Source of the DNA: Picochlorum sp. SENEW3
Lineage: Eukaryota
Reading direction: 5' to 3'
Length of the DNA stretch: 64,000 bases
Assembly: GCA_034226945.1 (NCBI GenBank)
Contig: CP120454.1
Span: 1,302,001 to 1,366,000, forward strand
Shown here: positions 32,843 to 45,900 of the stretch, in pieces
Numbering within the stretch: position 1 is the first letter of the stretch
Layout: every line of letters starts with the position of its first letter
Position numbers and translations under genes: made by a program
The notes under the pieces: model-generated
Database searches by the model: none
The model's input: only the letters and a program-made list of their open reading frames with translations
Told to the model about the DNA's origin: nothing

Positions 32843-34570
32843 TTATGCAGGCATGACTTGAATGTGGAATGTCTTTTGTGTGGCATGATCCTTTGTGGAT
32901 GATGATGTGGCGTCGTCGTCGGATTGTGGTTGCTCCAACACGTTTTCTTCTTCATGGTGAACACCACCAGCGATGAGTACAATCCATGCCGCCAATTTCA
33001 TGGCGGCAATGTGCAGCCAGAGTCTCCATCGCTTCATCCTTGATTTCATCACACCAACATACTCTACTCGCTTGTTGCTCTGTGTCTTCACCTTGAGTCC
33101 TTTCAACGCTTCGACGGCATTGACACGTAATCTATCCGCAATGTTCGTGCCAAGTCTGGAGCACGTGTGTCTGACAATTGTCATGGCTCTCAGGCAGTCT
33201 GCAAGGTCCTGAGGGCAGGATTTCATGGCATTTCTGATATCCTGCATCCCACCGAATCCTACCTTGTTTCTAGCTTTCAGTCGTTCTTCTGGAGTCATCG
33301 TATCCCAGTCTCGAGGTTTCAGCATGGCAGGGAGCACTCTACCTGTCGTCTCCCCTGCCAATTGAATTGCAGCTGTAGTGGCTGTGGCAGCATCATTCAG
33401 CACAAATGCACACCACATCATACAGTATAATAATCGCATATCAGATGGTAAGTTAAAGTACAGTCCATGATCGATAAGGACCAATTGAGGGCGTGGGTGT
33501 CGGCGCCATGGTGTCAAAATATTTGATGATGGGGGCAATGCTCTGACAAAGACATTTCCTGGGTGCATATCTCCATGAACAAAACCATGGGAACACATCA
33601 TCTCAGCTGCAACACCCTGAAACAGTAACGCAACTTGTCGTGGAGATAACCCTGCTTTCTTCAACTCTTCTTTATCGCTCACTTTAATACCCTGTATCCA
33701 TTCCATGCATAAAAGGCGCTTTGAAGACCACCTAGGAAACAACCTAGGCACCACAATATCATCTCTGTCTGCGAAGCAAATAGCCAATCGAGCAGCATTA
33801 TCTGCTTCATTTCTAAAATCTAATTCTTCGGATAACTTCTCTCGAATCTCTTTCAAAAACCAACGCCAATCACTGACTCTGAACACAAGTGTTGCAAACC
33901 CAGCAAGCAGTGTCATTGCTGCCAAATCAGCGTGTAGTGCGCTCTCCAAACCAGGATACTGAATTTTCACAGCAACATCTGTTCCATCCTTCAGTCGAGC
34001 TTTATGAACCTGTGCCAACGACGCCGCCGCAGTGGCTTTTGACTCAAACGCTTCAAATACCTCTTCCACCTTGTGACCCAACTCAACCTCCAAAGCTTTC
34101 TTAATCGCTACAAATGGCCGCGGCGGAACACTGTCTTCCAACTTTTCCAACATCTCTCTATACTCTGGAGGAAGCGTGGTCAGGGATGCCGCCGTCTGAC
34201 CCGCCTTGACATACACACCTCCATTCTTTTGACACACCCGCAGCAATCCATGTGCCACCTGTCGATGCATCTTGCTCATAGCGTCTTGATACATCTCCTG
34301 AAACGAAGGATGAGAAGAATACTTCCATGTATAATATAATGTAAACCGTTTATATCGATATGCAGACCGAATCCCCCACAAGACCATTCTCACAATACGA
34401 GGACCAGCTTTCACAATCTCAAACCTAGACCCATACGCCACCACAAGCCCAACCACCACCACTACCAGCATGGCGATATCAAACACTGCCATCCCATCAA
34501 TGATGATGGGATCCAGATGCACATGCTGGGTGTTGCCAGTAAAGGCAATGTCACTCAAGCCCCATGCCAT
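32843..34570 (-). CDS. ABC1/UbiB atypical kinase (ADCK-like)
   Basis: NGGVYVKAGQ, AAASLAQVHKA, VAVKIQYP, EELDFRNE, HGDMHPGN and LIDHGLY motifs. Confidence 0.93.
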   Translation of the reverse strand: MAWGLSDIAFTGNTQHVHLDPIIIDGMAVFDIAMLVVVVVGLVVAYGSRFEIVKAGPRIVRMVLWGIRSAYRYKRFTLYYTWKYSSHPSFQEMYQDAMSKMHRQVAHGLLRVCQKNGGVYVKAGQTAASLTTLPPEYREMLEKLEDSVPPRPFVAIKKALEVELGHKVEEVFEAFESKATAAASLAQVHKARLKDGTDVAVKIQYPGLESALHADLAAMTLLAGFATLVFRVSDWRWFLKEIREKLSEELDFRNEADNAARLAICFADRDDIVVPRLFPRWSSKRLLCMEWIQGIKVSDKEELKKAGLSPRQVALLFQGVAAEMMCSHGFVHGDMHPGNVFVRALPPSSNILTPWRRHPRPQLVLIDHGLYFNLPSDMRLLYCMMWCAFVLNDAATATTAAIQLAGETTGRVLPAMLKPRDWDTMTPEERLKARNKVGFGGMQDIRNAMKSCPQDLADCLRAMTIVRHTCSRLGTNIADRLRVNAVEALKGLKVKTQSNKRVEYVGVMKSRMKRWRLWLHIAAMKLAAWIVLIAGGVHHEEENVLEQPQSDDDATSSSTKDHATQKTFHIQVMPA

Positions 34571-35064
34571 GTCTGTTCACTATGCCACCTTTCTATGAGG
34601 GTATTTCCTTTGTCATCCACGTGTTCTTCTGTAATTAGTTAATTTACAATCTGATTGAAAGATCAGTGGATCATAACCATGCTAGTTTGTGCGTGTTGAC
34701 CCGAGTTCGACAGGGACAGCTCCTGAGTTGGACATGGGACGTTCGATGTCCCGAGTGTGACCATGCCACGTCGACAGGTACAGTAAATAAATTTACAATT
34801 GAAAATAGGCACCATCATGGGGGTGGTAGGATGTCGAGGTGGCATATCGCGCATCTGGAGTACCGGTATCGTCGTTGGTAGTGGACATACTATTTCGGGA
34901 GTATTCCCGAAATACTGTGTCTATTCCAATCCAGATAGAACAGGAGATGGGAGTCCATCGCCATCGACAATCAGGGTCGAAGAAATATTTTGTATTTGTT
35001 TCGATATCATCATCATCAAGAGAGGAAAAAGACGGTATCGTCGAAAGAGGAGAGATACGAGCAA

Positions 35065-35406
35065 ATGGTGAGAGTACTGCGTGTCGTCGCGACAGGAAGT
35101 GCGCCTCCTGCTGGAGCACAAGTGCGCGTGATCAAGCCAGTTCAGGTGTATCATGTTGGTAAATTTAAGGATGGGTTGAATTTGGAGGGGCGAGTGGGGA
35201 CCGTGGTGCAGGATGTCTCGTCGTATGAGGGCAAGGTGTTGTCTGCTACACTGCCTTACAAGGTGGAGTTTTCTGTGGATGGGGAGGGTGATAAGCCTGT
35301 CAAGGTGCTGGCTCATGTAGAAGCAGATGAGATTGAGCTTGCGGATCCTCTGGAGCAGTTCTGCGAGGAGGATCCTTCAGCTGATGAATGTAGAGTGTAC
35401 GAGTGA
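35065..35406 (+). CDS. Ferredoxin-thioredoxin reductase variable subunit with a C-terminal CP12-like tail
   Basis: GAQVRV...VQVYHV...LEGRVGTV...YEGKVLSATLPYKVEF...AHVEADEIEL matches the FTR variable chain; it continues directly into DPLEQFCEEDPSADECRVYE*. First in-frame ATG is 35065; the true 5' end is uncertain. Confidence 0.85.
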   Translation: MVRVLRVVATGSAPPAGAQVRVIKPVQVYHVGKFKDGLNLEGRVGTVVQDVSSYEGKVLSATLPYKVEFSVDGEGDKPVKVLAHVEADEIELADPLEQFCEEDPSADECRVYE

Positions 35407-35550
35407 TTGATTCTCTCCAAAATGTTCCATTATTGTTCTTGTACATGGTCGCATAGTTTTCGTAGAAGATATTTAAGAAATATTACTGATTTATGAAAAC
35501 AATCAATAAAAACGCATCAATGAAATGATCAAAATTCTTTGGTTGGTATG

Positions 35551-38334
35551 TTATTGGTAGGAGACATGATGAGATGCCTTTTCAGGGTGCGCCAGTTGGC
35601 TCTGGCGTTTGTATTCTTTCTGTGCCCTCATGACGGCAAGCACATCGTAGACTCTCCATGCATGTTCTGGATCGCTGTTGCAGCTTGCTTCAAGGTAAGC
35701 AAGGGCAAGATAACTTAGCTTTGGCTGCTTTTTGCTTGTTGTTGCTTCCCCTGTGCCACTATAGAGTCGAGGGTGCTGTTTGAGAGGGATCTGGGGTGAA
35801 CTTGAAAAGGTTGTGACTCGCGAGCTCGCTGCCTTCCAATCATCAAAGACGGTTAGCGCCCGTTTGAGGTTTTTATCTCGGCAGTACCCTTCTATGAGAG
35901 CTTCAAACATTCGTCTGTGTCCTAGAGTTGCTCGCTCAAGACTCTTGGTTTTTCGACGGAGTTGAAGATAGTATTTCCATGATTGCTGCATGAGTCTCTG
36001 AGATGCGTGGACGTGAGCGAGAGAGGCCAGTGCTGCTCCATTTGGCTCATGTGCTCTTTTAGGGAGAGGAGAACGCCCTGTGCCATTGGATCCTCTCCAA
36101 GCCATGGCCATCATTCGATCATACACTTCAACGGCATCGTCAACATTCTGCGCAGAGCATAGACATTCGATGAGGGCAGATCCTGACGGTCCGTCCAACT
36201 CAATATTGTTTGAACGCAATGCTCTGTACATGCCGAGAGCCTCCACCACATCTCCTGCCATGGCACATTGCTTCAAGACTTCGAGACGAGTACTCCGAGA
36301 TGGCTGCATATTCATCGCTTGCATGAGGCTGATCATTCTGTATGCACGTGTTGGGGACTCCACGGACAAGGCTCTTGTCAAAGAATTCATGGCATGCTGC
36401 TGAATGTTGGAATTCTTCCGTGCCATGGATTTCACCAGGTCCAGTGCTTCGTCCAATTTTCCACACCGTGTGCATACAGATATGAGTATATTATGCATCT
36501 GATCGGAAGGCGTCACTCCCTCGGTGCATGCTTTCTGATACAATGTGAATGCCTTGGCAACATCTCCTTGCTTCTCGCAGGCAACCAAGAGGCAACCATA
36601 TGTCACATCTGTCAATGGCACATGTCGCGTATTCATTTCATTCGCCAGACTGAATGCAAGCATGAGCGATTTTTGGTCCCCATGCCTGACAGCGGCATGT
36701 ATGAAACTCGTGTACAAGATGGAATTTGGAGCAATGTTGGAGTCTGCCAGACTGTCAAAAATCTTCTTTGCTGCATCTGCATTACCCACAGTGGCAAATG
36801 TGTGAAGAAGGGAGCCAAACGTCCTCTCTGTTGCCTGAATATTGTTCGACGTCATCTCCCAGTACAAGTCAAGAGCTGCATCCACATTTTTGGAGCATCC
36901 AGTGATGTGGAGCATTGTGTTGTACGTCACAATATCTGGGAAAGGACCATTAGACTTCATCGACTCGAATATCAAAGATGCAATATCCAACTGCTTGTGT
37001 TCGCCTAAAAAGTGCAGAAATGCATTATATGCTGCTAGAGAATCCCGCTCTACATGTTTTGGCATTCGTTTTGGATCTTGGTCAAGGTACCAGGAACTAA
37101 ATTCATCAAAAGCATCAAATGCCATATTATACAATGCCTCCGAGGAGGATTCTTTAGCACACGCTGAAAAGAGAGACGAAAAAAAGTGCGGTGACAACAG
37201 AATCTCGTCCTGCCGTGCGGCATCCCACACATCGACAGCCCTATCGGGCATATCCTGCCTTGCCAAAAACGTCATGAAGGATGTGTACGTGACATCATTC
37301 AAAGCCCCCTGGCTTCGAGAGTTCTGCAACAACTCAAAAACGACGTCAATTTGGTCTCTAGATGATGTCGTATGTGACATGGCTGAGAAAAAGCTCGACA
37401 GAATATAGTCATTTGGTTGAAGATGCATGCCTGTATACACCTCGATCAGCCAATCTGCCGAGGCTGCTGCTCTACAGTTTGCAGCTGCGCTAAAAACAGC
37501 AGTATACGTCCACGACGTCGGCTTCAACCCTGAAGACTTGATATCCTCATACAGCTTTTTGACATACTCAAAATCATTTCGAGCACCCGTAACTTTAATC
37601 ATAGCATTGTATGTGACTATATCTGGTTTGACTACATGGGACTTCTTCACCAGGTTCCATACATATTCTGCACCACCCCAATCCTGCGACCTTTCACACG
37701 CACTAATGGCGGCATTATAGAGCTCTATTCTATCACATGAAGGATCTTGAAGCGCCGTGTGGAGCTGGGCAAGAGCCGCAACAGGCTGCTTTGCAACCCC
37801 TAGGGCAGAAATTCTGGCTGAATGAGAGTATACATCCGGCCGATACCCCGCCTTTTCGCGCTCATAGAGCACTTTATCTAACATTTTCACATCCCCGCGA
37901 GTCAGACATTCCTTCAGAATAATGGAGAAATGCTTTGGACTCTGTTTCGTCAACGAGCAAATAATTGCCAAACCTTTCTCTGGAGTACCTCGAGCATAGC
38001 ACGTGTTCACCACCTTTTTCAATAATTTCGAGTCCAGCGTGATATTGTAACGATATTTTTCATGATTTAATAAATAAATACATGTATCAATATCCCCAAA
38101 CGCAGCCGCTTGCTCCAGTTGGCTCTGCACGTCAGATACCTCAGAGGACGTTGTCCTCATCATCTCGTCATCCTGTGGCACAGCGACCCGGCACACTAAC
38201 ACATTGTCCCTTTTATCCGCTCGAAAAGATTTTCTCAGAGTGCCAGAGGCGCATGTACCAAGATACTGAGGAAAGCTCTGTCGTCGTTGAAACACAGGTG
38301 CGCATCCACGACAATGAGCGCTTACAGCACTCAT
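35551..38334 (-). CDS. P-type pentatricopeptide repeat protein, probably plastid-targeted
   Basis: Many 35-aa repeats (PDIVTYNAMIK, PTSWTYTAVF, TFGSLLHTF, VTYGCLLVAC); transit-like N-terminus from ATG 38334. Confidence 0.9.
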   Translation of the reverse strand: MSAVSAHCRGCAPVFQRRQSFPQYLGTCASGTLRKSFRADKRDNVLVCRVAVPQDDEMMRTTSSEVSDVQSQLEQAAAFGDIDTCIYLLNHEKYRYNITLDSKLLKKVVNTCYARGTPEKGLAIICSLTKQSPKHFSIILKECLTRGDVKMLDKVLYEREKAGYRPDVYSHSARISALGVAKQPVAALAQLHTALQDPSCDRIELYNAAISACERSQDWGGAEYVWNLVKKSHVVKPDIVTYNAMIKVTGARNDFEYVKKLYEDIKSSGLKPTSWTYTAVFSAAANCRAAASADWLIEVYTGMHLQPNDYILSSFFSAMSHTTSSRDQIDVVFELLQNSRSQGALNDVTYTSFMTFLARQDMPDRAVDVWDAARQDEILLSPHFFSSLFSACAKESSSEALYNMAFDAFDEFSSWYLDQDPKRMPKHVERDSLAAYNAFLHFLGEHKQLDIASLIFESMKSNGPFPDIVTYNTMLHITGCSKNVDAALDLYWEMTSNNIQATERTFGSLLHTFATVGNADAAKKIFDSLADSNIAPNSILYTSFIHAAVRHGDQKSLMLAFSLANEMNTRHVPLTDVTYGCLLVACEKQGDVAKAFTLYQKACTEGVTPSDQMHNILISVCTRCGKLDEALDLVKSMARKNSNIQQHAMNSLTRALSVESPTRAYRMISLMQAMNMQPSRSTRLEVLKQCAMAGDVVEALGMYRALRSNNIELDGPSGSALIECLCSAQNVDDAVEVYDRMMAMAWRGSNGTGRSPLPKRAHEPNGAALASLAHVHASQRLMQQSWKYYLQLRRKTKSLERATLGHRRMFEALIEGYCRDKNLKRALTVFDDWKAASSRVTTFSSSPQIPLKQHPRLYSGTGEATTSKKQPKLSYLALAYLEASCNSDPEHAWRVYDVLAVMRAQKEYKRQSQLAHPEKASHHVSYQ

Positions 38335-38517
38335 GTGAGTCAAATTTGCTTTCTTAACAAACAAAAATATGTAATTAATGACCGTGGATGCCACTATACA
38401 CAATTCACATGAGCGTCATGGTTGCAATAAAATGGTTTCAGCAGATGACATTGTCGTGAACACCACAATTCAAACAACAGGGTGCTCATGCCAGAGCAAA
38501 ACCATTAAATAGTTTCC

Positions 38518-40482: not shown

Positions 40483-40866
40483 TTGCAATATCCATTCTAT
40501 ACACCCATCCATGTCAATAGAGATATAAATTGTTTAATTTTACGACTATAAGACTTAAGTGGACATTTAAGTCGATATTCAACCAAAAGTACGAGTTTTT
40601 ACAGATTGGCTCGAGTGTCGGCAGAGGACCAAGTTGCACACAAGTTTTTTGCCTAATTACTCCAGATCGTCATTAGGTACGACTCTAAAGGAAATTTAAA
40701 TATCTTTGAACTCGATAAATCCCTATTTCCTGGCATAATCGCTTTTGTCTGAATGGACATGCCAGTTCATGTTCTCACTCGGTTGTCTCTCGTTTGTGTC
40801 TATAGGTCGCGCTGAAGCGTTAATTTTCATATTTAGATAATACTTTTTCATTTCGTCCTTCTAAGA

Positions 40867-42682
40867 ATGAACTGTGGAAGGGCATTTATCAAAGAGGGTG
40901 GCGTCCCAACGAGTGCTTTGAGCAGAGGCAGGCGATTGACGCTAGATAGTCATAGGAAGGATGGATACAGCCAAAAATTGCAATATAAATTCCTGCATCG
41001 GGGCATTGGTGGGCTGGGCAGGCCTTTGAGACGCAGGTCTGTTGACACAAACTTGACGCCGGCATACGACCCAAGTGTCCAAGATGGGCAGGACTCTGGT
41101 TCACAGGAAGGGTCAGATGTGCAGCCGATTGCGCCACGATGGATGGGAGTTGTTCCTGATGTTCCTTTCACGGGAGATGATCAGGGTAGCACGATTTACT
41201 CTGCCCTGGCAAACCTGCACGTGTTGGGGTCCTTTGATGAGTCTCAGTTTGAGGCTGAGACATATGTTCGAGAGGCGACGGGCAAGTCTGAGGATAAAAA
41301 ATCGGAGACTGTGCCAGAAGTAAGCAGTGCTGCTGTGGAAGAGCCGACGCCTGTTGAACCACAGGGAGGTATTCCACATCGATGGCAGATTGTCCTCATG
41401 ATGGCCCTGGCATTTGTCCTCTGCAATATGGATAAGGTCAACATGTCTGTCGCAGTGATTCCCATGGCAAAAGAGTTAGGTTGGTCTGCGACAGAGAGGG
41501 GTTTGGTCTCCTCCTCCTTCTTCTGGGGATACTCATTGACCCAGATTCCAGCTGGATGGGTGTCAACATCCATTGGAGGATCCAAAGTGCTGATGGCAGG
41601 AGTTGCACTATGGTCGATTGGAACTTTAGTGGCGCCTCCAGCTGCAAACATGAGTCTGTTTGCGCTGTGTGCGACTCGTGTCTTTGTTGGTCTTGGGGAG
41701 GGTCTTGCTCCATCATCAGCCACAAATGTATTAGCTCGCGTCATTCCAGAGTGCGTTGTCATATTATTGTGCTTCAATTTTTGATCTTCTCGTAACTGTT
41801 TATTGTATGTGTAGGGGGGAGAGAGCCCGAGCAGTCACCGCAGTGTTTGGTGGATTAGATGTGGGAAGTGCTTTGGGGCTGACACTTTGTGGACCATTGA
41901 TCCATTGGTTTGGCTGGCAATCGGTTTTTTATCTATTTGCCGTTCTCGGCCTAGTGTGGTGCCTTGCATGGCCTCTAGTCAAGCCTGAAACTAGGGAGCC
42001 AGGGGAAGTAAAGCCAGCCCAAAAGGCCCCCAAAGCCCCAACAAATGTTCCTTGGAGAAAATTTTTACGTTCGCCCCCAGTGTGGGCAGTGATTGTAGCA
42101 CATTTTTGCTACAATTGGGGATATTATACTCTTTTAGCATGGCTTCCATCATACTTTGAGATGGCCCTGGGACTTAACGTAGAGAAGAGTTCCCTTCTGA
42201 CATTGATTCCATACATTGCAATGACATTCATGACTCCATTCGTTGGCCCAGTCGCAGACGGTCTTGCAGCTAGAGGATGGTCTGTGACCACAGTTAGAAA
42301 ACTCTCACAGGGTATAGCTTTTGCAGGACCGGCGTTATGTATGCTGGCCATGTCCATTTTGACTCCAGCAGCACCGGGAGGAGGAAACACAATTTTGCTC
42401 GTCTCAATCATGTCCCTAGCGTTTGCTCTTGGTGCATGGGCGAGAGCCGGACTTTATTGCAATCATCAAGACTTGTCTCCAAAGTATGCTGCTGCGCTTT
42501 TAGGATTAACAAACACAGCTGGAGCACTCCCTGGTGTCCTTGGTGTCACAGCTGCAGGGTACCTTCTTGATGCCACTGGCTCCTGGTCGTATGCATTATT
42601 TTATCCAACGATCTTATGTCAGGTATTTGGGCTGGTAATCTATAGCATTTTCGCGAGCAGCGAGAGACAAGGATGGGATTGA
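40867..42682 (+). CDS. Plastid anion/phosphate transporter, PHT4/ANTR (SLC17, MFS) family
   Basis: AFVLCNMDKVNMSVA, SSFFWGY, NWGYYTLLAWLPSYF and GLYCNHQDLSPKYA motifs; intron 41751-41814 joins the two ORFs. Confidence 0.92.
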
Positions 42683-42971: not shown

Positions 42972-45900
42972 ATGCAGAATAATATCGGTAGAGATCTAGG
43001 AGGAAGAAGCATGGTTCAACGAGACGGTCTTGGCGAAGAGTATGGGCCCATGTCCGTCTCCGGCTCGCTTCCTCGATGCTTTCAGAACGTATTCAATTTT
43101 AGATATTTCAATTCTGTTCAATCAGAATGCTTTGATGTGCTGTATCACTCGCGCAAGAATACCATGGTGTCGTCACCGACTGGCTCGGGAAAGGTACGAG
43201 ATGCACGGCTAATGATGATCATGATGCATGGGAACTACCAGAGTATTCAATCTATCTGTAGACAAGTTTGTTCGAGCTAGCCATACTGGGGATGCTGAGG
43301 GATTATGTGATGGTTCATGGAAATGGGCAGGAGGAGTTCCAAGGAGCTATGGGTCAGAGCAAGGCGATCTACATTGCTCCGACAAGGTCCTTGGTTCAGG
43401 AGAAGGCTAGAGAGTGGAGGGAAAGATTTGGAACAAGCTTGCATCTTCGGGTAGAGGAGTTCACGGGTGATGTCGATAATGGCAAGGATGCATTGCAAGA
43501 ATCTGATATAATTTGCATCACACCCGAGAGGTTTGATTCGATGACGAGGAGAGATAAACATGGGGGCATGGGTTTCTTTTCTCAGGTTAAATTAGTACTG
43601 CTCGATGAAATTCATTTGTTGAGCGACTCTCGCGGCTCCTGTTTGGAAGCTGGTGTTGTGTCTCGTCTCAAGATGGCACAGCAGAATATGGTTAGAGAGC
43701 AGCATGAATATGCAAACGACGTGCATTTTCGATTTATTGCATGTTCAGCTACGTTTTCGAATTTAGAAGACGTGGCAGAGTGGCTTCGTGTTCCTGAGGA
43801 GGCAATTTTCAAGTTTGGAAATGAGATGCGACCAGTGCCACTGCAGATTGTGGTCAAAGGCTACCAGAGCTCTAAAAATGATTTTCTGTTCGACAGATAT
43901 CTTACAGGTCAGGTCTATGATCTTGTTTCCAAGTTTTCGAATGGAAAACCAGTGCTTTGCTTCTGTCCTTCTAGACAGGGCAGTGTGAATACTGCAACAT
44001 CACTCAGAAGGCAGTCAACAGACCACCAGGGCAGAAGTTTATTTGTCACGAGTCCGGAACAGCAGTCCTTTCTAGACGAACAAGCCCGGTCGATTAGAAA
44101 TAGTACATTACGAGAATGTGTTCGATCTGGATTAGGATTCCATCATGGAGCGTTGGAGCCAGGTGACAGGGCAAAGGTGGAGGAGCTCTTCTCTGCAAAG
44201 ATGCTTCGCGTGGTGAGTACAACATCAACGTTGGCTGTTGGTGTGAACTTGCCAGCTTATCTTGTGATTATTAAGGGAACTAAGAGATATGGAGGAGCTG
44301 GTCATGGGTATGTCCAGTACGACTACTCGCAAATCTTGCAAATGATTGGACGAGCTGGAAGAGTGAATTTTGACACAGAGGGTGCAGCAGTCATCATGAC
44401 GGAGAAAAAGGTATGAGAAAATGTGTGCTCATCTTTTGATATACCCACATGTATTGTTTATTACCTTTCAATGATGCATGCAGTATGAGAATGATTTGCT
44501 CAAGGTGTCTTCCCTTTCAGAAACAATAGAGTCCCGCCTTCATGAGAATATTGCCGAGTATTTGAATGCTGAAATTGCAAATAGGACAATTCGTGATATT
44601 CCTGGCGCTCTGGATTGGTTGAAATCAACCTTTTTATACATAAGAGCGCTGAAGAATCCAACGCATTATCACATTCCTGCTGCAACATTGGCATCAACAT
44701 TGGAGATGGACAAATGGCTGAGGACCCATGTGTTGCTGTCCCATGCAAACAAGCTCGTAAAGAGCGGCATGGCCTATACTGATGAGGAGGAATACACATT
44801 GTGCCCTAGTCAATCTGGTATCATCATGGCAGAGCATTATATGAGGCTTTCAACCATGTCTGCAATTTGCAAACTCAAATCATCCTCGAGCATGGAAGAT
44901 TTGATGTGGGTTATTGCCAACAGTGATGAGCTCTCTCCTACTATCGTCCGAAGGAATGAAAAGAAGGTGTTGAATGCCATCAATAAGTCAGGTATGCTGC
45001 GTTACACTGTGAAAGACTTGAGAAAGTCGCCAGCAAAAATATTGGATAGAGTTCAGCTCCCCAGCCAGAAGAATTTTCTTCTCATGATGCACGCCCTCTC
45101 CTCCAAAGCCAGAAAGGAATATACCATCGAATACTCTTTGAAACAAGAAGGAGATTCCATCATATCAGTGGGCTTGCGTATAATACGATGTATGGTACGA
45201 TATTTTGGCCATGTTGCAAATCAGCCAAAAGCACTTGCAGATGCACTGCTTTTGCAAAAGGTTTTGACCCAGCGTATGTGGCCAGATGATCCGATGCTGC
45301 TGACTCAAGTTCAGACAATTGGTGATATTATAGCAAACCGATTGATAGCATCAAATGTCCGAACAATGAGGCAGATGATTGGCACAGATCCAAGGGAATT
45401 GGAAAATTTTGCCCAGAAGAATTATCCATGGGGCTCAAATGTCAGAAATTTGGTGTTGCGGATCTGTCCTCCGCCCATCAGCATTCAAATCGTGCTCGAA
45501 CCAGATCCTTCGCAAGAATCGAAGCTTTCATGCAATGTACAAATCTCCTGCACGGATGAATGCAATGATGCCCAAAAGTCTCTCAGCCGAAACTGCTCTC
45601 TGGTCATATTCACACAAAATGGTTCAGCAATGCTGTGTTATAGAAATCTTCAATACTCGGCATTCTCTAAAGGAGGACTCTCTGTTCAAATAGACCAAGA
45701 ATTGATCCAAAATTCTCAGGATCGAATCATAGTCAAAGTGATTGATGGTGCCATCGTTGGATCAGATGTACGTACTCGTAATCATGCATGAAGATTCTGT
45801 CTACATCCATCACAAGCACGACTATGTATTGCAGGTGACCGCATCCACAGATATTACTCCATCCAAGACCACATCAGACCATCTGAATCATCCAACCCCA

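Follow-up and report, generated by a model that had tools for sequence, protein, structure and literature searches.

We found that a gene in the window, by which we mean the whole 64-kb stretch of DNA analysed here, encodes a ferredoxin-thioredoxin reductase variable chain (FTRV) that continues directly into a CP12-type C-terminal extension. FTRV is apparently a further, unexpected carrier of this extension, and the fusion appears to be both conserved and undescribed. The best explanation of the sequence is that the gene product is a non-catalytic FTR subunit whose C-terminus acquired the GAPDH-binding half of CP12, as a 20-residue acidic tail of the pattern CxxxPxxxxC-R-x-Y-E. Light signals enter the chloroplast thioredoxin (Trx) system through FTR. 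By analogy with other proteins that carry CP12-type tails, we propose, with about even confidence, that in its oxidised state the tail anchors FTR to A4-GAPDH and leaves PRK unrecruited, and that FTR-reduced Trx releases FTR. If true, this would provide the first case of the reductase being physically linked to one of its targets in the Calvin cycle, and the CP12 module would be working independently of PRK in a lineage that reportedly has no GapB (PMC13491260).

The gene and its two parts

The coding sequence is a complete single exon on the forward strand (35065-35406), with an ATG at 35065 and a TGA stop at 35404-35406. Its translation gives 113 residues without internal stops, and the C-terminal end reads ...HVEADEIELADPLEQFCEEDPSADECRVYE*. 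An in-frame stop at 34936-34938 precedes the ATG, no in-frame ATG lies between the two, and the stop-to-stop frame opens at 34939. An identical protein is recorded in NCBI, and the names in its 90% cluster are Picochlorum sp. BPE23 and Picochlorum renovo. The same cluster holds P0013, a 113-aa transcript-derived model from a Picochlorum that is labelled 'type:complete'. This places the window in the nuclear genome of a Picochlorum (Trebouxiophyceae).

The original prediction held that an FTR variable chain runs, without intron or stop, into the C-terminal CX8C module of CP12 at 35344-35406, and suggested a check with the FeThRed_A and CP12 profiles. The coordinates proved correct, and both Pfam domains scored above cutoff. 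FeThRed_A (PF02941) covers residues 17-89 (35113-35331, forward strand) with 68.6 bits (cutoff 25, E 5e-19), a full-length match to profile positions 2-67 of 67. CP12 (PF02672) covers residues 88-113 with 29.7 bits (cutoff 22.7, E 1.1e-6), and only profile positions 45-70 of 70 are matched, that is, the last 26 positions of canonical CP12. The 16 residues ahead of FeThRed_A (MVRVLRVVATGSAPPA, 35065-35112, forward strand) are rich in V, R, A and S and contain no acidic residue, and sequence comparison showed similar presequences in the relatives. Given this composition and their position before the Pfam domain, they presumably form a short chloroplast transit peptide that targets the protein to the plastid.

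We read the stretch upstream of the ATG (34895-35064, forward strand) as a non-coding leader (5'UTR), and one public contig starts at 34895. GenBank holds models of 194 aa from a relative that begin at an ATG further upstream ('MGVVGC...'), but the same frame is broken or out of frame in the window. Public contigs of relatives carry 3-nt and 2-nt indels in the leader, at 35006 and 35050-35052, and P0002, from another relative, translates the stretch in yet other frames. The broken upstream frame, the indels and these other frames show the stretch to be leader and not coding sequence. In the overlapping frames and on the opposite strand, no Pfam family scored above its curated cutoff, the one match listed being Ycf1 with 9.9 bits (cutoff 29.4; frame 34830-35162, forward strand), and Rfam gave no matches over 34000-36500. 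The window has a GC content of 45-49% and is dense in long uninterrupted ORFs of ordinary eukaryotic and plastid-related proteins (for example PsaF, ClpB, PPR and ABC1 kinase). One FTRV and one CP12-type tail are all that its 64 kb contain of either kind.

In the PDB, the domain matched the Arabidopsis FTR variable chain 7c2b_B (E 2.2e-13), in an alignment that reaches the last residues of that chain (...EDEFELIDP), as well as the Synechocystis chains 1dj7_B and 2pu9_B (E about 5e-4). The Picochlorum protein has the full FeThRed_A domain in common with canonical FTRV/FTRA (7c2b_B, 1dj7_B). However, the canonical chains end at the close of the domain, whereas the Picochlorum protein continues into the CP12-like tail. 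All 12 columns that are invariant in an alignment of 20 FTRVs, tailed and tail-less, are retained (G17, V20, V22, K33, G37, G45, S60, A61, P64, F69, H84 and E89). Since every family-wide invariant residue is kept, the tailed domain probably still pairs with the catalytic subunit FTRC. Ferredoxin (Fd) and Trx touch FTRC alone, and the role proposed for FTRV is to shield the Fe-S cluster (PMC9025218); apart from this protection, the subunit is not known to have an assigned role.

The CP12-type extension, DPLEQFCEEDPSADECRVYE, comprises residues 94-113 (35344-35403, or to 35406 with the stop, forward strand). Specifically, it carries a CxxxPxxxxC pair made of Cys100 (35362-35364) and Cys109 (35389-35391), both on the forward strand and both invariant in 13/13 tailed proteins, and then [RK]-x-Y-[ED] at the chain end (C100-EEDP-SADE-C109-RVYE*). 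These are the only two Cys of the protein, and the N-terminal Cys pair of CP12 is absent. The PRK-binding AWD_VEEL motif is absent as well, with positions 1-44 of the CP12 profile unmatched and the FTRV domain occupying the upstream sequence. Eight of the 20 tail residues are acidic and one is basic. EIELA, with which the FTRV part closes, is followed by DPLE with virtually no linker. The C-terminal half of CP12 sits at the extreme C-terminus of an otherwise complete FTRV, and tail-less FTRVs end where the tail starts.

When the last 33 residues alone were searched against the PDB, 10 distinct sequences were matched, and all of them were CP12, GapB or CBS-CP12. The best match was A. thaliana CP12-2 (DPLEEYCKDNPETNECRTYD, 7.6e-5), aligned to the last residue of both chains. 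The alignment to the C-terminal extension (CTE) of GapB also reaches the chain ends, with C, P, C, R/K and Y conserved. Both CP12-2 and the GapB CTE are present here as chains of solved structures of GAPDH complexes. A search of the ESM Atlas with the whole protein returned only streptophyte FTRV clusters (scores <=0.82), and the tail alone gave no usable match there.

Conservation and rarity of the fusion

A word-based search identified nine relatives with 59-96% identity, and 9/9 carry the tail. Across 13 aligned tailed proteins, C100, E102, D103, P104, A106, D107, E108, C109, R110, V111 and Y112 are invariant, so that residues 108-112 read ECRVY in every one of these FTRVs. GC-rich relatives have GGYL[DE]E in place of DPLE, and the tail of P0007 scored 17.4 bits, under the CP12 cutoff of 22.7. 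A metagenome scan gave seven loci, of which five (L001-L005) encode the tailed protein in a contiguous ORF; their GC content is 43% in L001, 63-64% in L002-L004 and 60% in L005. Another of the seven, L007, matched at 32% identity (E 4e-5). Among prokaryote genome contigs, 18 pattern matches contained no relatives.

We used the two neighbouring genes as synteny anchors. The divergent neighbour encodes an ABC1 atypical kinase (32843-34576, reverse strand; Pfam ABC1, 236 bits) and is taken as an anchor only, not as a functional partner. The convergent neighbour encodes a PPR protein (35551-38415, reverse strand; Pfam PPR families). An ABC1 kinase orthologue lies divergently upstream of the tailed FTRV in L001, L002, L003 and L005, the four loci that are long enough, and a PPR orthologue lies convergently downstream in all five tailed loci. 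The neighbouring genes are 57-75% identical between the window and the tailed metagenome loci. The fusion occupies one conserved locus (ABC1K / FTRV / PPR) across lineages of 43-64% GC. An assignment of the GC-rich relatives to Mamiellales was rejected, because their conserved synteny with the window argues for closer kin.

Comparing the window with L001, we counted 14 synonymous and no non-synonymous differences over the 20 codons of the tail, and for the domain we obtained a pN of 0.135 against a pS of 0.70. These codon differences showed that purifying selection acts on both the domain and the tail, and the fusion is old within the group. The coding sequences of close strains differ at 8 substituted sites; 7 of these are synonymous, the remaining one is Y54F, and indels are confined to the sequence before the ATG. 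Contigs of four out of four public runs from four studies carry the fused ORF in one piece, without joints across the domain/tail junction; the runs count for DNA contiguity only, as no listed run is recorded as RNA. The same tail in all nine relatives, together with this contiguity and the five metagenome loci, demonstrates that the fusion of domain and tail is not a product of chance.

Ordinary FTRVs had been predicted to end at an EIEL-like motif, and this agrees with the E-[ILV]-E-like ending that we observed. An exhaustive HMMER scan of 1.84 billion representatives gave 276 matches at E <= 0.001, and the best 150 of these 276 were classified. In 69 of the 150, the protein ends within 8 residues of the motif H-x-x-E-[DE]-E-[ILV]. 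A CP12-like tail was present in two (P0006, standing for the Picochlorum-like cluster, and P0056). A further 61 continue past 'HLV', probably read into an intron, so their true ends are undefined, and 18 are unclear. Among the best 150 FTRVs, a CP12-like tail is rare, and it may range more widely in intron-rich chlorophytes.

P0056, which the domain tree places with an FTRV from Pedinophyceae, has a CX10C tail that lacks the central Pro, and pedinophyte CP12 is likewise described as CX10C without central Pro (PMC13491260). With this shared peculiarity, the FTRV tail follows the CP12 form of its own lineage, as would fit either a separate grafting event or co-evolution of the tail with a common partner.

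The best tail-less match was the P0054 cluster, 63% identical over 79 residues. One of its members, P0207, bears the name Picochlorum soloecismus and is a tail-less FTRV of 102 aa that ends in ...EDDELDQA. At the tail-less locus L006 (GC 47%), a TAG stop comes right after the motif, and no tail remnant was found in the 120 AT-rich bases downstream of it. Here too, a convergent orthologue of the window's PPR gene adjoins the FTRV. Over the C-terminal 275 residues, the identity of this PPR protein to that of the window is 55% in L006, 56-59% in the GC-rich tailed lineages and 69% in L001. In the domain tree, the nine Picochlorum-type tailed proteins group together with support 83/93, apart from the tail-less cluster, whose support is 95/93, and the names in the clusters do not overlap, with BPE23 and P. 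renovo on the tailed side and P. soloecismus on the tail-less side. In view of the synteny given by the shared PPR neighbour, we prefer orthology of the tail-less FTRV to paralogy within the same genome. Tailed and tail-less FTRVs would then be orthologous genes of sister lineages, and a single gain or loss of the tail would separate them, which we consider probable. Judged from the sequences, the tail is dispensable for FTR as such, since a tail-less FTRV occurs in a named Picochlorum.

The same tail on other proteins

We also searched for other carriers of the tail with a word-based search that used residues 73-113 as query. The carriers share the near-identical pattern DP[LM]Ex[FY]CxxDPSADECRVY[ED], and this near-identity is partly an artefact of ascertainment, since they were found through words in common with the window's tail. 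Carriers of similar length were P0205, a fragment of Redoxin (peroxiredoxin), and P0203, a fragment of ascorbate peroxidase. Longer carriers were the PAP/fibrillin P0221, two GMC oxidoreductases, two ascorbate peroxidases and a PfkB kinase. The C-terminal CP12 match exceeded the Pfam cutoff in each carrier tested (P0221, P0230, P0222, P0225, P0226 and P0205; 23.6-27.9 bits). The cluster mates of the fibrillin are Picochlorum sp. BPE23, SENEW3, P. oklahomense and P. renovo, and it is the only non-FTRV carrier tied by name to Picochlorum.

The search also returned a canonical free CP12 of green-algal type, P0204, of 107 aa, with the N-terminal Cys pair, AWDAVEEV and both Cys pairs in place. The window's tail is identical to that of P0204 at 17 of 19 positions. 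P0204 is filed under a ciliate transcriptome, and we infer that it stems from algal material in the ciliate culture.

The fusion does not stand alone as a link of FTR to its target, as the same tail occurs on at least five protein families besides FTRV, namely fibrillin, ascorbate peroxidase (APX), GMC oxidoreductase, PfkB kinase and peroxiredoxin. With the same tail on unrelated proteins, its role appears not to be specific to FTR. Near-identical tails on five unrelated families mean that the tail is best seen as a putative portable, redox-gated docking tag, of which FTRV is one carrier. With these five plastid protein families, the carriers known so far (GapB, ADK3, argininosuccinate lyase) gain new members. 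The new carriers suggest a set of GAPDH-docked proteins that could be tested in transformable, fast-growing Picochlorum strains.

Docking on GAPDH and its alternatives

By homology, we infer that the FTRV tail docks on GAPDH. Oxidised CP12 binds A4-GAPDH via the coenzyme and catalytic site, and for green algae A4 is described as the only plastid GAPDH and CP12 as its only known light/dark control (PMC3838966). Trebouxiophyceae are reported to have kept CP12 and to lack GapB (PMC13491260). In GapB, the CTE disulfide produces a hairpin near the coenzyme site, where negative charges pull Arg77 off the 2'-phosphate of NADPH; this disulfide has an Em of about -353 mV and is reduced by Trx (PMC3838966). 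In addition, the CTE of ADK3 binds GAPDH (PMC13491260, PMC9406205).

In the dark, under oxidising conditions, a disulfide between Cys100 and Cys109 would fold the FTRV tail into a hairpin like that of CP12 or the GapB extension. With this hairpin, FTRV would dock on A4-GAPDH, the sole plastid GAPDH reported from trebouxiophytes, where the coenzyme and catalytic site lies. The original prediction also considered a tether to the GAPDH-PRK complex. Canonical CP12 has an N-terminal Cys pair and an AWD_VEEL PRK-binding core; the FTRV tail has neither, and by the cited CP12 model it should therefore occupy the GAPDH site without recruiting PRK and could not bridge the two enzymes. In the light, Trx reduced by FTR would open the tail disulfide, and FTR would be released. 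Overall, FTR would be parked, under redox control, on a Calvin-cycle enzyme that is abundant. Because GAPDH far outnumbers FTR, any inhibition of GAPDH by the FTRV-tail protein would be small.

Some observations count against docking. With no linker between EIELA and DPLE, the steric fit on GAPDH is only presumed, and in GC-rich relatives the tail falls below the CP12 cutoff, as noted for P0007. The tail-less FTRV in a named Picochlorum, which makes the tail dispensable for FTR, also counts against it, as does the occurrence of the tail on unrelated proteins.

Known systems resemble the proposed arrangement in part. Like the FTRV tail, the GapB CTE of A2B2-GAPDH is the C-terminal half of CP12 at the C-terminus of another protein, acidic and with CxxxPxxxxC-[KR]-x-Y-E at the chain end, and it is Trx-regulated (PMC3838966). 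In GapB, however, the carrier is GAPDH itself and the tail auto-inhibits in cis, whereas the FTRV carrier is a subunit of the Trx-reducing enzyme. Since this carrier is not GAPDH, any action on GAPDH would be in trans. For a tag that acts in trans, the closest precedent is Chlamydomonas ADK3, a non-GAPDH chloroplast carrier of the CP12 CTE that binds GAPDH and inhibits its NADPH-dependent activity (PMC13491260, PMC9406205). The carriers differ, the biochemistry is on the ADK3 side only, and the two are likened by description rather than by sequence.

In the diatom Asterionella formosa, ferredoxin-NADP reductase (FNR) is associated with GAPDH and a CP12-like protein (PMC9406205). This complex may serve as a precedent for coupling Fd-linked enzymes to GAPDH via CP12-type elements. 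Unlike the FTRV fusion, it is a non-covalent assembly without gene fusion, it contains FNR and not FTR, and the sequence of its CP12-like protein is not known. Cyanobacterial CBS-CP12, a weak PDB match (5nmu_A, E 0.78), is similar to the FTRV tail in that CP12 is fused to another domain. It is prokaryotic, its CBS domains are N-terminal, and it is reported not to form a GAPDH/PRK complex (PMC9406205).

The fusion could in principle be an artefact of misassembly, of a missed intron or stop, or of annotation. Errors do exist in the public records, with the 194-aa models wrong at their 5' end and the public contig P0051 chimeric at its 3' end. However, misassembly, which the original prediction named as a way in which it might fail, was not seen, the ORF being contiguous in the window, in the contigs of all four runs and in the five metagenome loci. 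A complete 113-aa transcript-derived ORF exists, and synonymous-only divergence of the tail cannot arise in non-coding DNA. We regard the artefact reading as effectively refuted and leave it next to no probability. The tailed protein could also be a neofunctionalised paralogue that has left FTR; the subunit of FTR would then be another FTRV without a tail, and the barrel would be a carrier for a PRK-independent, CP12-like regulator of GAPDH. A tail-less FTRV, 63% identical over the domain, indeed occurs under a Picochlorum name, and the tailed and tail-less proteins are separate groups in the domain tree. This reading is unlikely in our view, because the PPR gene adjoining the tail-less gene has diverged (55%) about as much as in the GC-rich tailed lineages (56-59%), which fits orthologues of sister lineages. 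Moreover, the names in the tailed and tail-less clusters do not overlap, the tailed domain keeps the family-invariant residues and a low pN/pS, and there is a single FTRV within the 64-kb window.

Another explanation, also raised in the original prediction, places the switch on FTR itself. The oxidised tail would fold back on the heterodimer, for instance close to the Trx-docking face or the redox-active FTRC disulfide, and gate its activity, or the tail would be reduced directly by FTRC. The tail is covalently attached to FTR, its 20-25 residues could span the small heterodimer, and Cys-bearing acidic auto-inhibitory C-terminal extensions are known from NADP-MDH and Rubisco activase alpha (PMC3838966). 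The near-identical tail on six unrelated carriers and on free CP12 argues instead for a common external partner. Fd and Trx contact the catalytic subunit only (PMC9025218), and a tail-less FTRV exists. A switch of this kind therefore seems distinctly unlikely. The same carriers bear on the idea of a generic tag whose role on all of them lies away from GAPDH, such as Cu/Ni binding, oxidative protection, stabilisation or turnover control. The carriers are functionally diverse, and the tail of ADK3 stabilises ADK3. In addition, CP12 binds Cu2+ and Ni2+ (PMC9406205). However, what the tails conserve is the GAPDH-binding motif, down to the R-x-Y-[ED] with which the chain closes, just as CP12 and GapB do, and GAPDH is also what the published carriers GapB and ADK3 act through (PMC13491260, PMC9406205), which makes a role apart from GAPDH distinctly unlikely.

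Docking of the FTRV tail on GAPDH is the reading that we prefer, and we extend it only tentatively to the other carriers. In the Picochlorum lineage, the CP12 C-terminal module could possibly be a redox-gated address tag on a set of plastid proteins (FTRV, fibrillin, APX, GMC oxidoreductase, PfkB, peroxiredoxin), with A4-GAPDH as a dark docking hub and FTR freeing itself via its own Trx at first light. Such a hub would amount to a built-in fast-start circuit, and it may be relevant to the way in which fluctuating light is handled by these algae.

The original prediction named GapB and a Chlamydomonas adenylate kinase as carriers of the module, and published work names both GapB and ADK3 (PMC13491260, PMC9406205). 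Carriers of the tail given in the 2022 CP12 review are GapB, ADK3, argininosuccinate lyase and proteins of cyanophages (PMC9406205), and the 2026 GapB paper names only ADK3 as a further carrier (PMC13491260). The prediction that the fusion is undescribed was supported by a full-text literature search, with most subscription journals outside its scope, in which we found no description of an FTRV-CP12 fusion and no paper with CP12 together with 'variable chain'. The papers that contain both CP12 and FTRV were cyanobacterial, and the fusion is absent from the FTRV passages of PMC9025218. Text matches to 'CP12' in Picochlorum papers were set aside as GenBank accession numbers. Proteins with both Pfam domains are already precomputed in sequence databases, under names such as 'hypothetical protein'.

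Variant and absent tails in relatives

The CP12-type tail of the ferredoxin-thioredoxin reductase variable chain (FTRV) differs among relatives of the window gene (35065..35406, + strand). In the GC-rich relatives of cluster P0009, the tail starts with a Gly-rich linker, GGAGGYL[DE]E, in place of DPLE. We also found that the near-invariant His of VYHVGKF is missing at about codon 31 in the metagenome loci L002-L004 of this cluster, which have VKVF-VGKF instead. A 543 bp ENA contig (P0056) encodes an FTRV with a variant tail, C-x10-C-KVYED, from which the central proline is missing. This FTRV clusters with a pedinophyte FTRV, and PMC13491260 gives pedinophyte CP12 the same two-residue insertion and proline loss.

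A tail-less FTRV of the P0054/P0207 cluster, recorded under a Picochlorum name, was identified on a metagenome contig (L006, 1-700). Its domain is 63% identical to that of the window FTRV, and it adjoins an orthologue of the convergent PPR gene of the window (35551..38415, - strand). A search for a tail remnant 3' of this FTRV found none; the TAG stop is followed by an AT-rich 3' region. The L006 gene may be an orthologue or a paralogue of the window FTRV.

Public models of the tailed gene

The public 144-aa ORF of P0051, a 1732 bp JGI contig, is a chimera. It follows FTRV-CP12 through 'CRVYD' and then switches to the C-terminal 28 residues of the PPR protein encoded by the convergent neighbour. 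Because about 11 nt (CGCGTCTACGA) are common to the FTRV-CP12 and PPR genes (P0051; L002 5400-5800), the junction looks like an inverted mis-join during assembly. The 194-aa models from a related strain (P0011, P0012, P0017) start at an upstream ATG (window equivalent 34787-35064). This upstream frame is not intact in the window, and relatives differ in it by 2-nt and 3-nt indels; the 194-aa models reach too far 5' and take in part of the 5'UTR.

CP12-type tails on other protein families

A near-identical tail, DPxExFCxxDPSADECRVY[ED], forms the C-terminal end of five further plastid-type families, in proteins outside the window: fibrillin (P0221, P0230), GMC oxidoreductase (P0222, P0223), ascorbate peroxidase (P0224, P0225, P0206), PfkB kinase (P0226) and Redoxin (P0205). 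The Pfam CP12 score exceeded the cutoff in every non-FTRV carrier tested, and four Picochlorum names fall within the tailed fibrillin cluster. All five families are absent from the tail carriers named in the reviews consulted.

Contig ends and split ORFs in the window

Contigs end at 35434 in two runs, in one of which the next contig begins at 35436. This break, about 30 nt past the FTRV stop codon and between two convergent genes, may mark transcript ends or mere assembly breaks. Farther along the + strand, the halves of an MFS_1 transporter lie in two overlapping ORFs in different frames (40837-41784 and 41735-42682; profile positions 2-116 and 117-346), split by either an intron or a frameshift. 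DEAD/Helicase_C and Sec63/wHTH domains occupy two adjacent + strand ORFs (43262-44416 and 44475-45791), probably a single Brr2/ASCC3-like helicase gene split by an intron.
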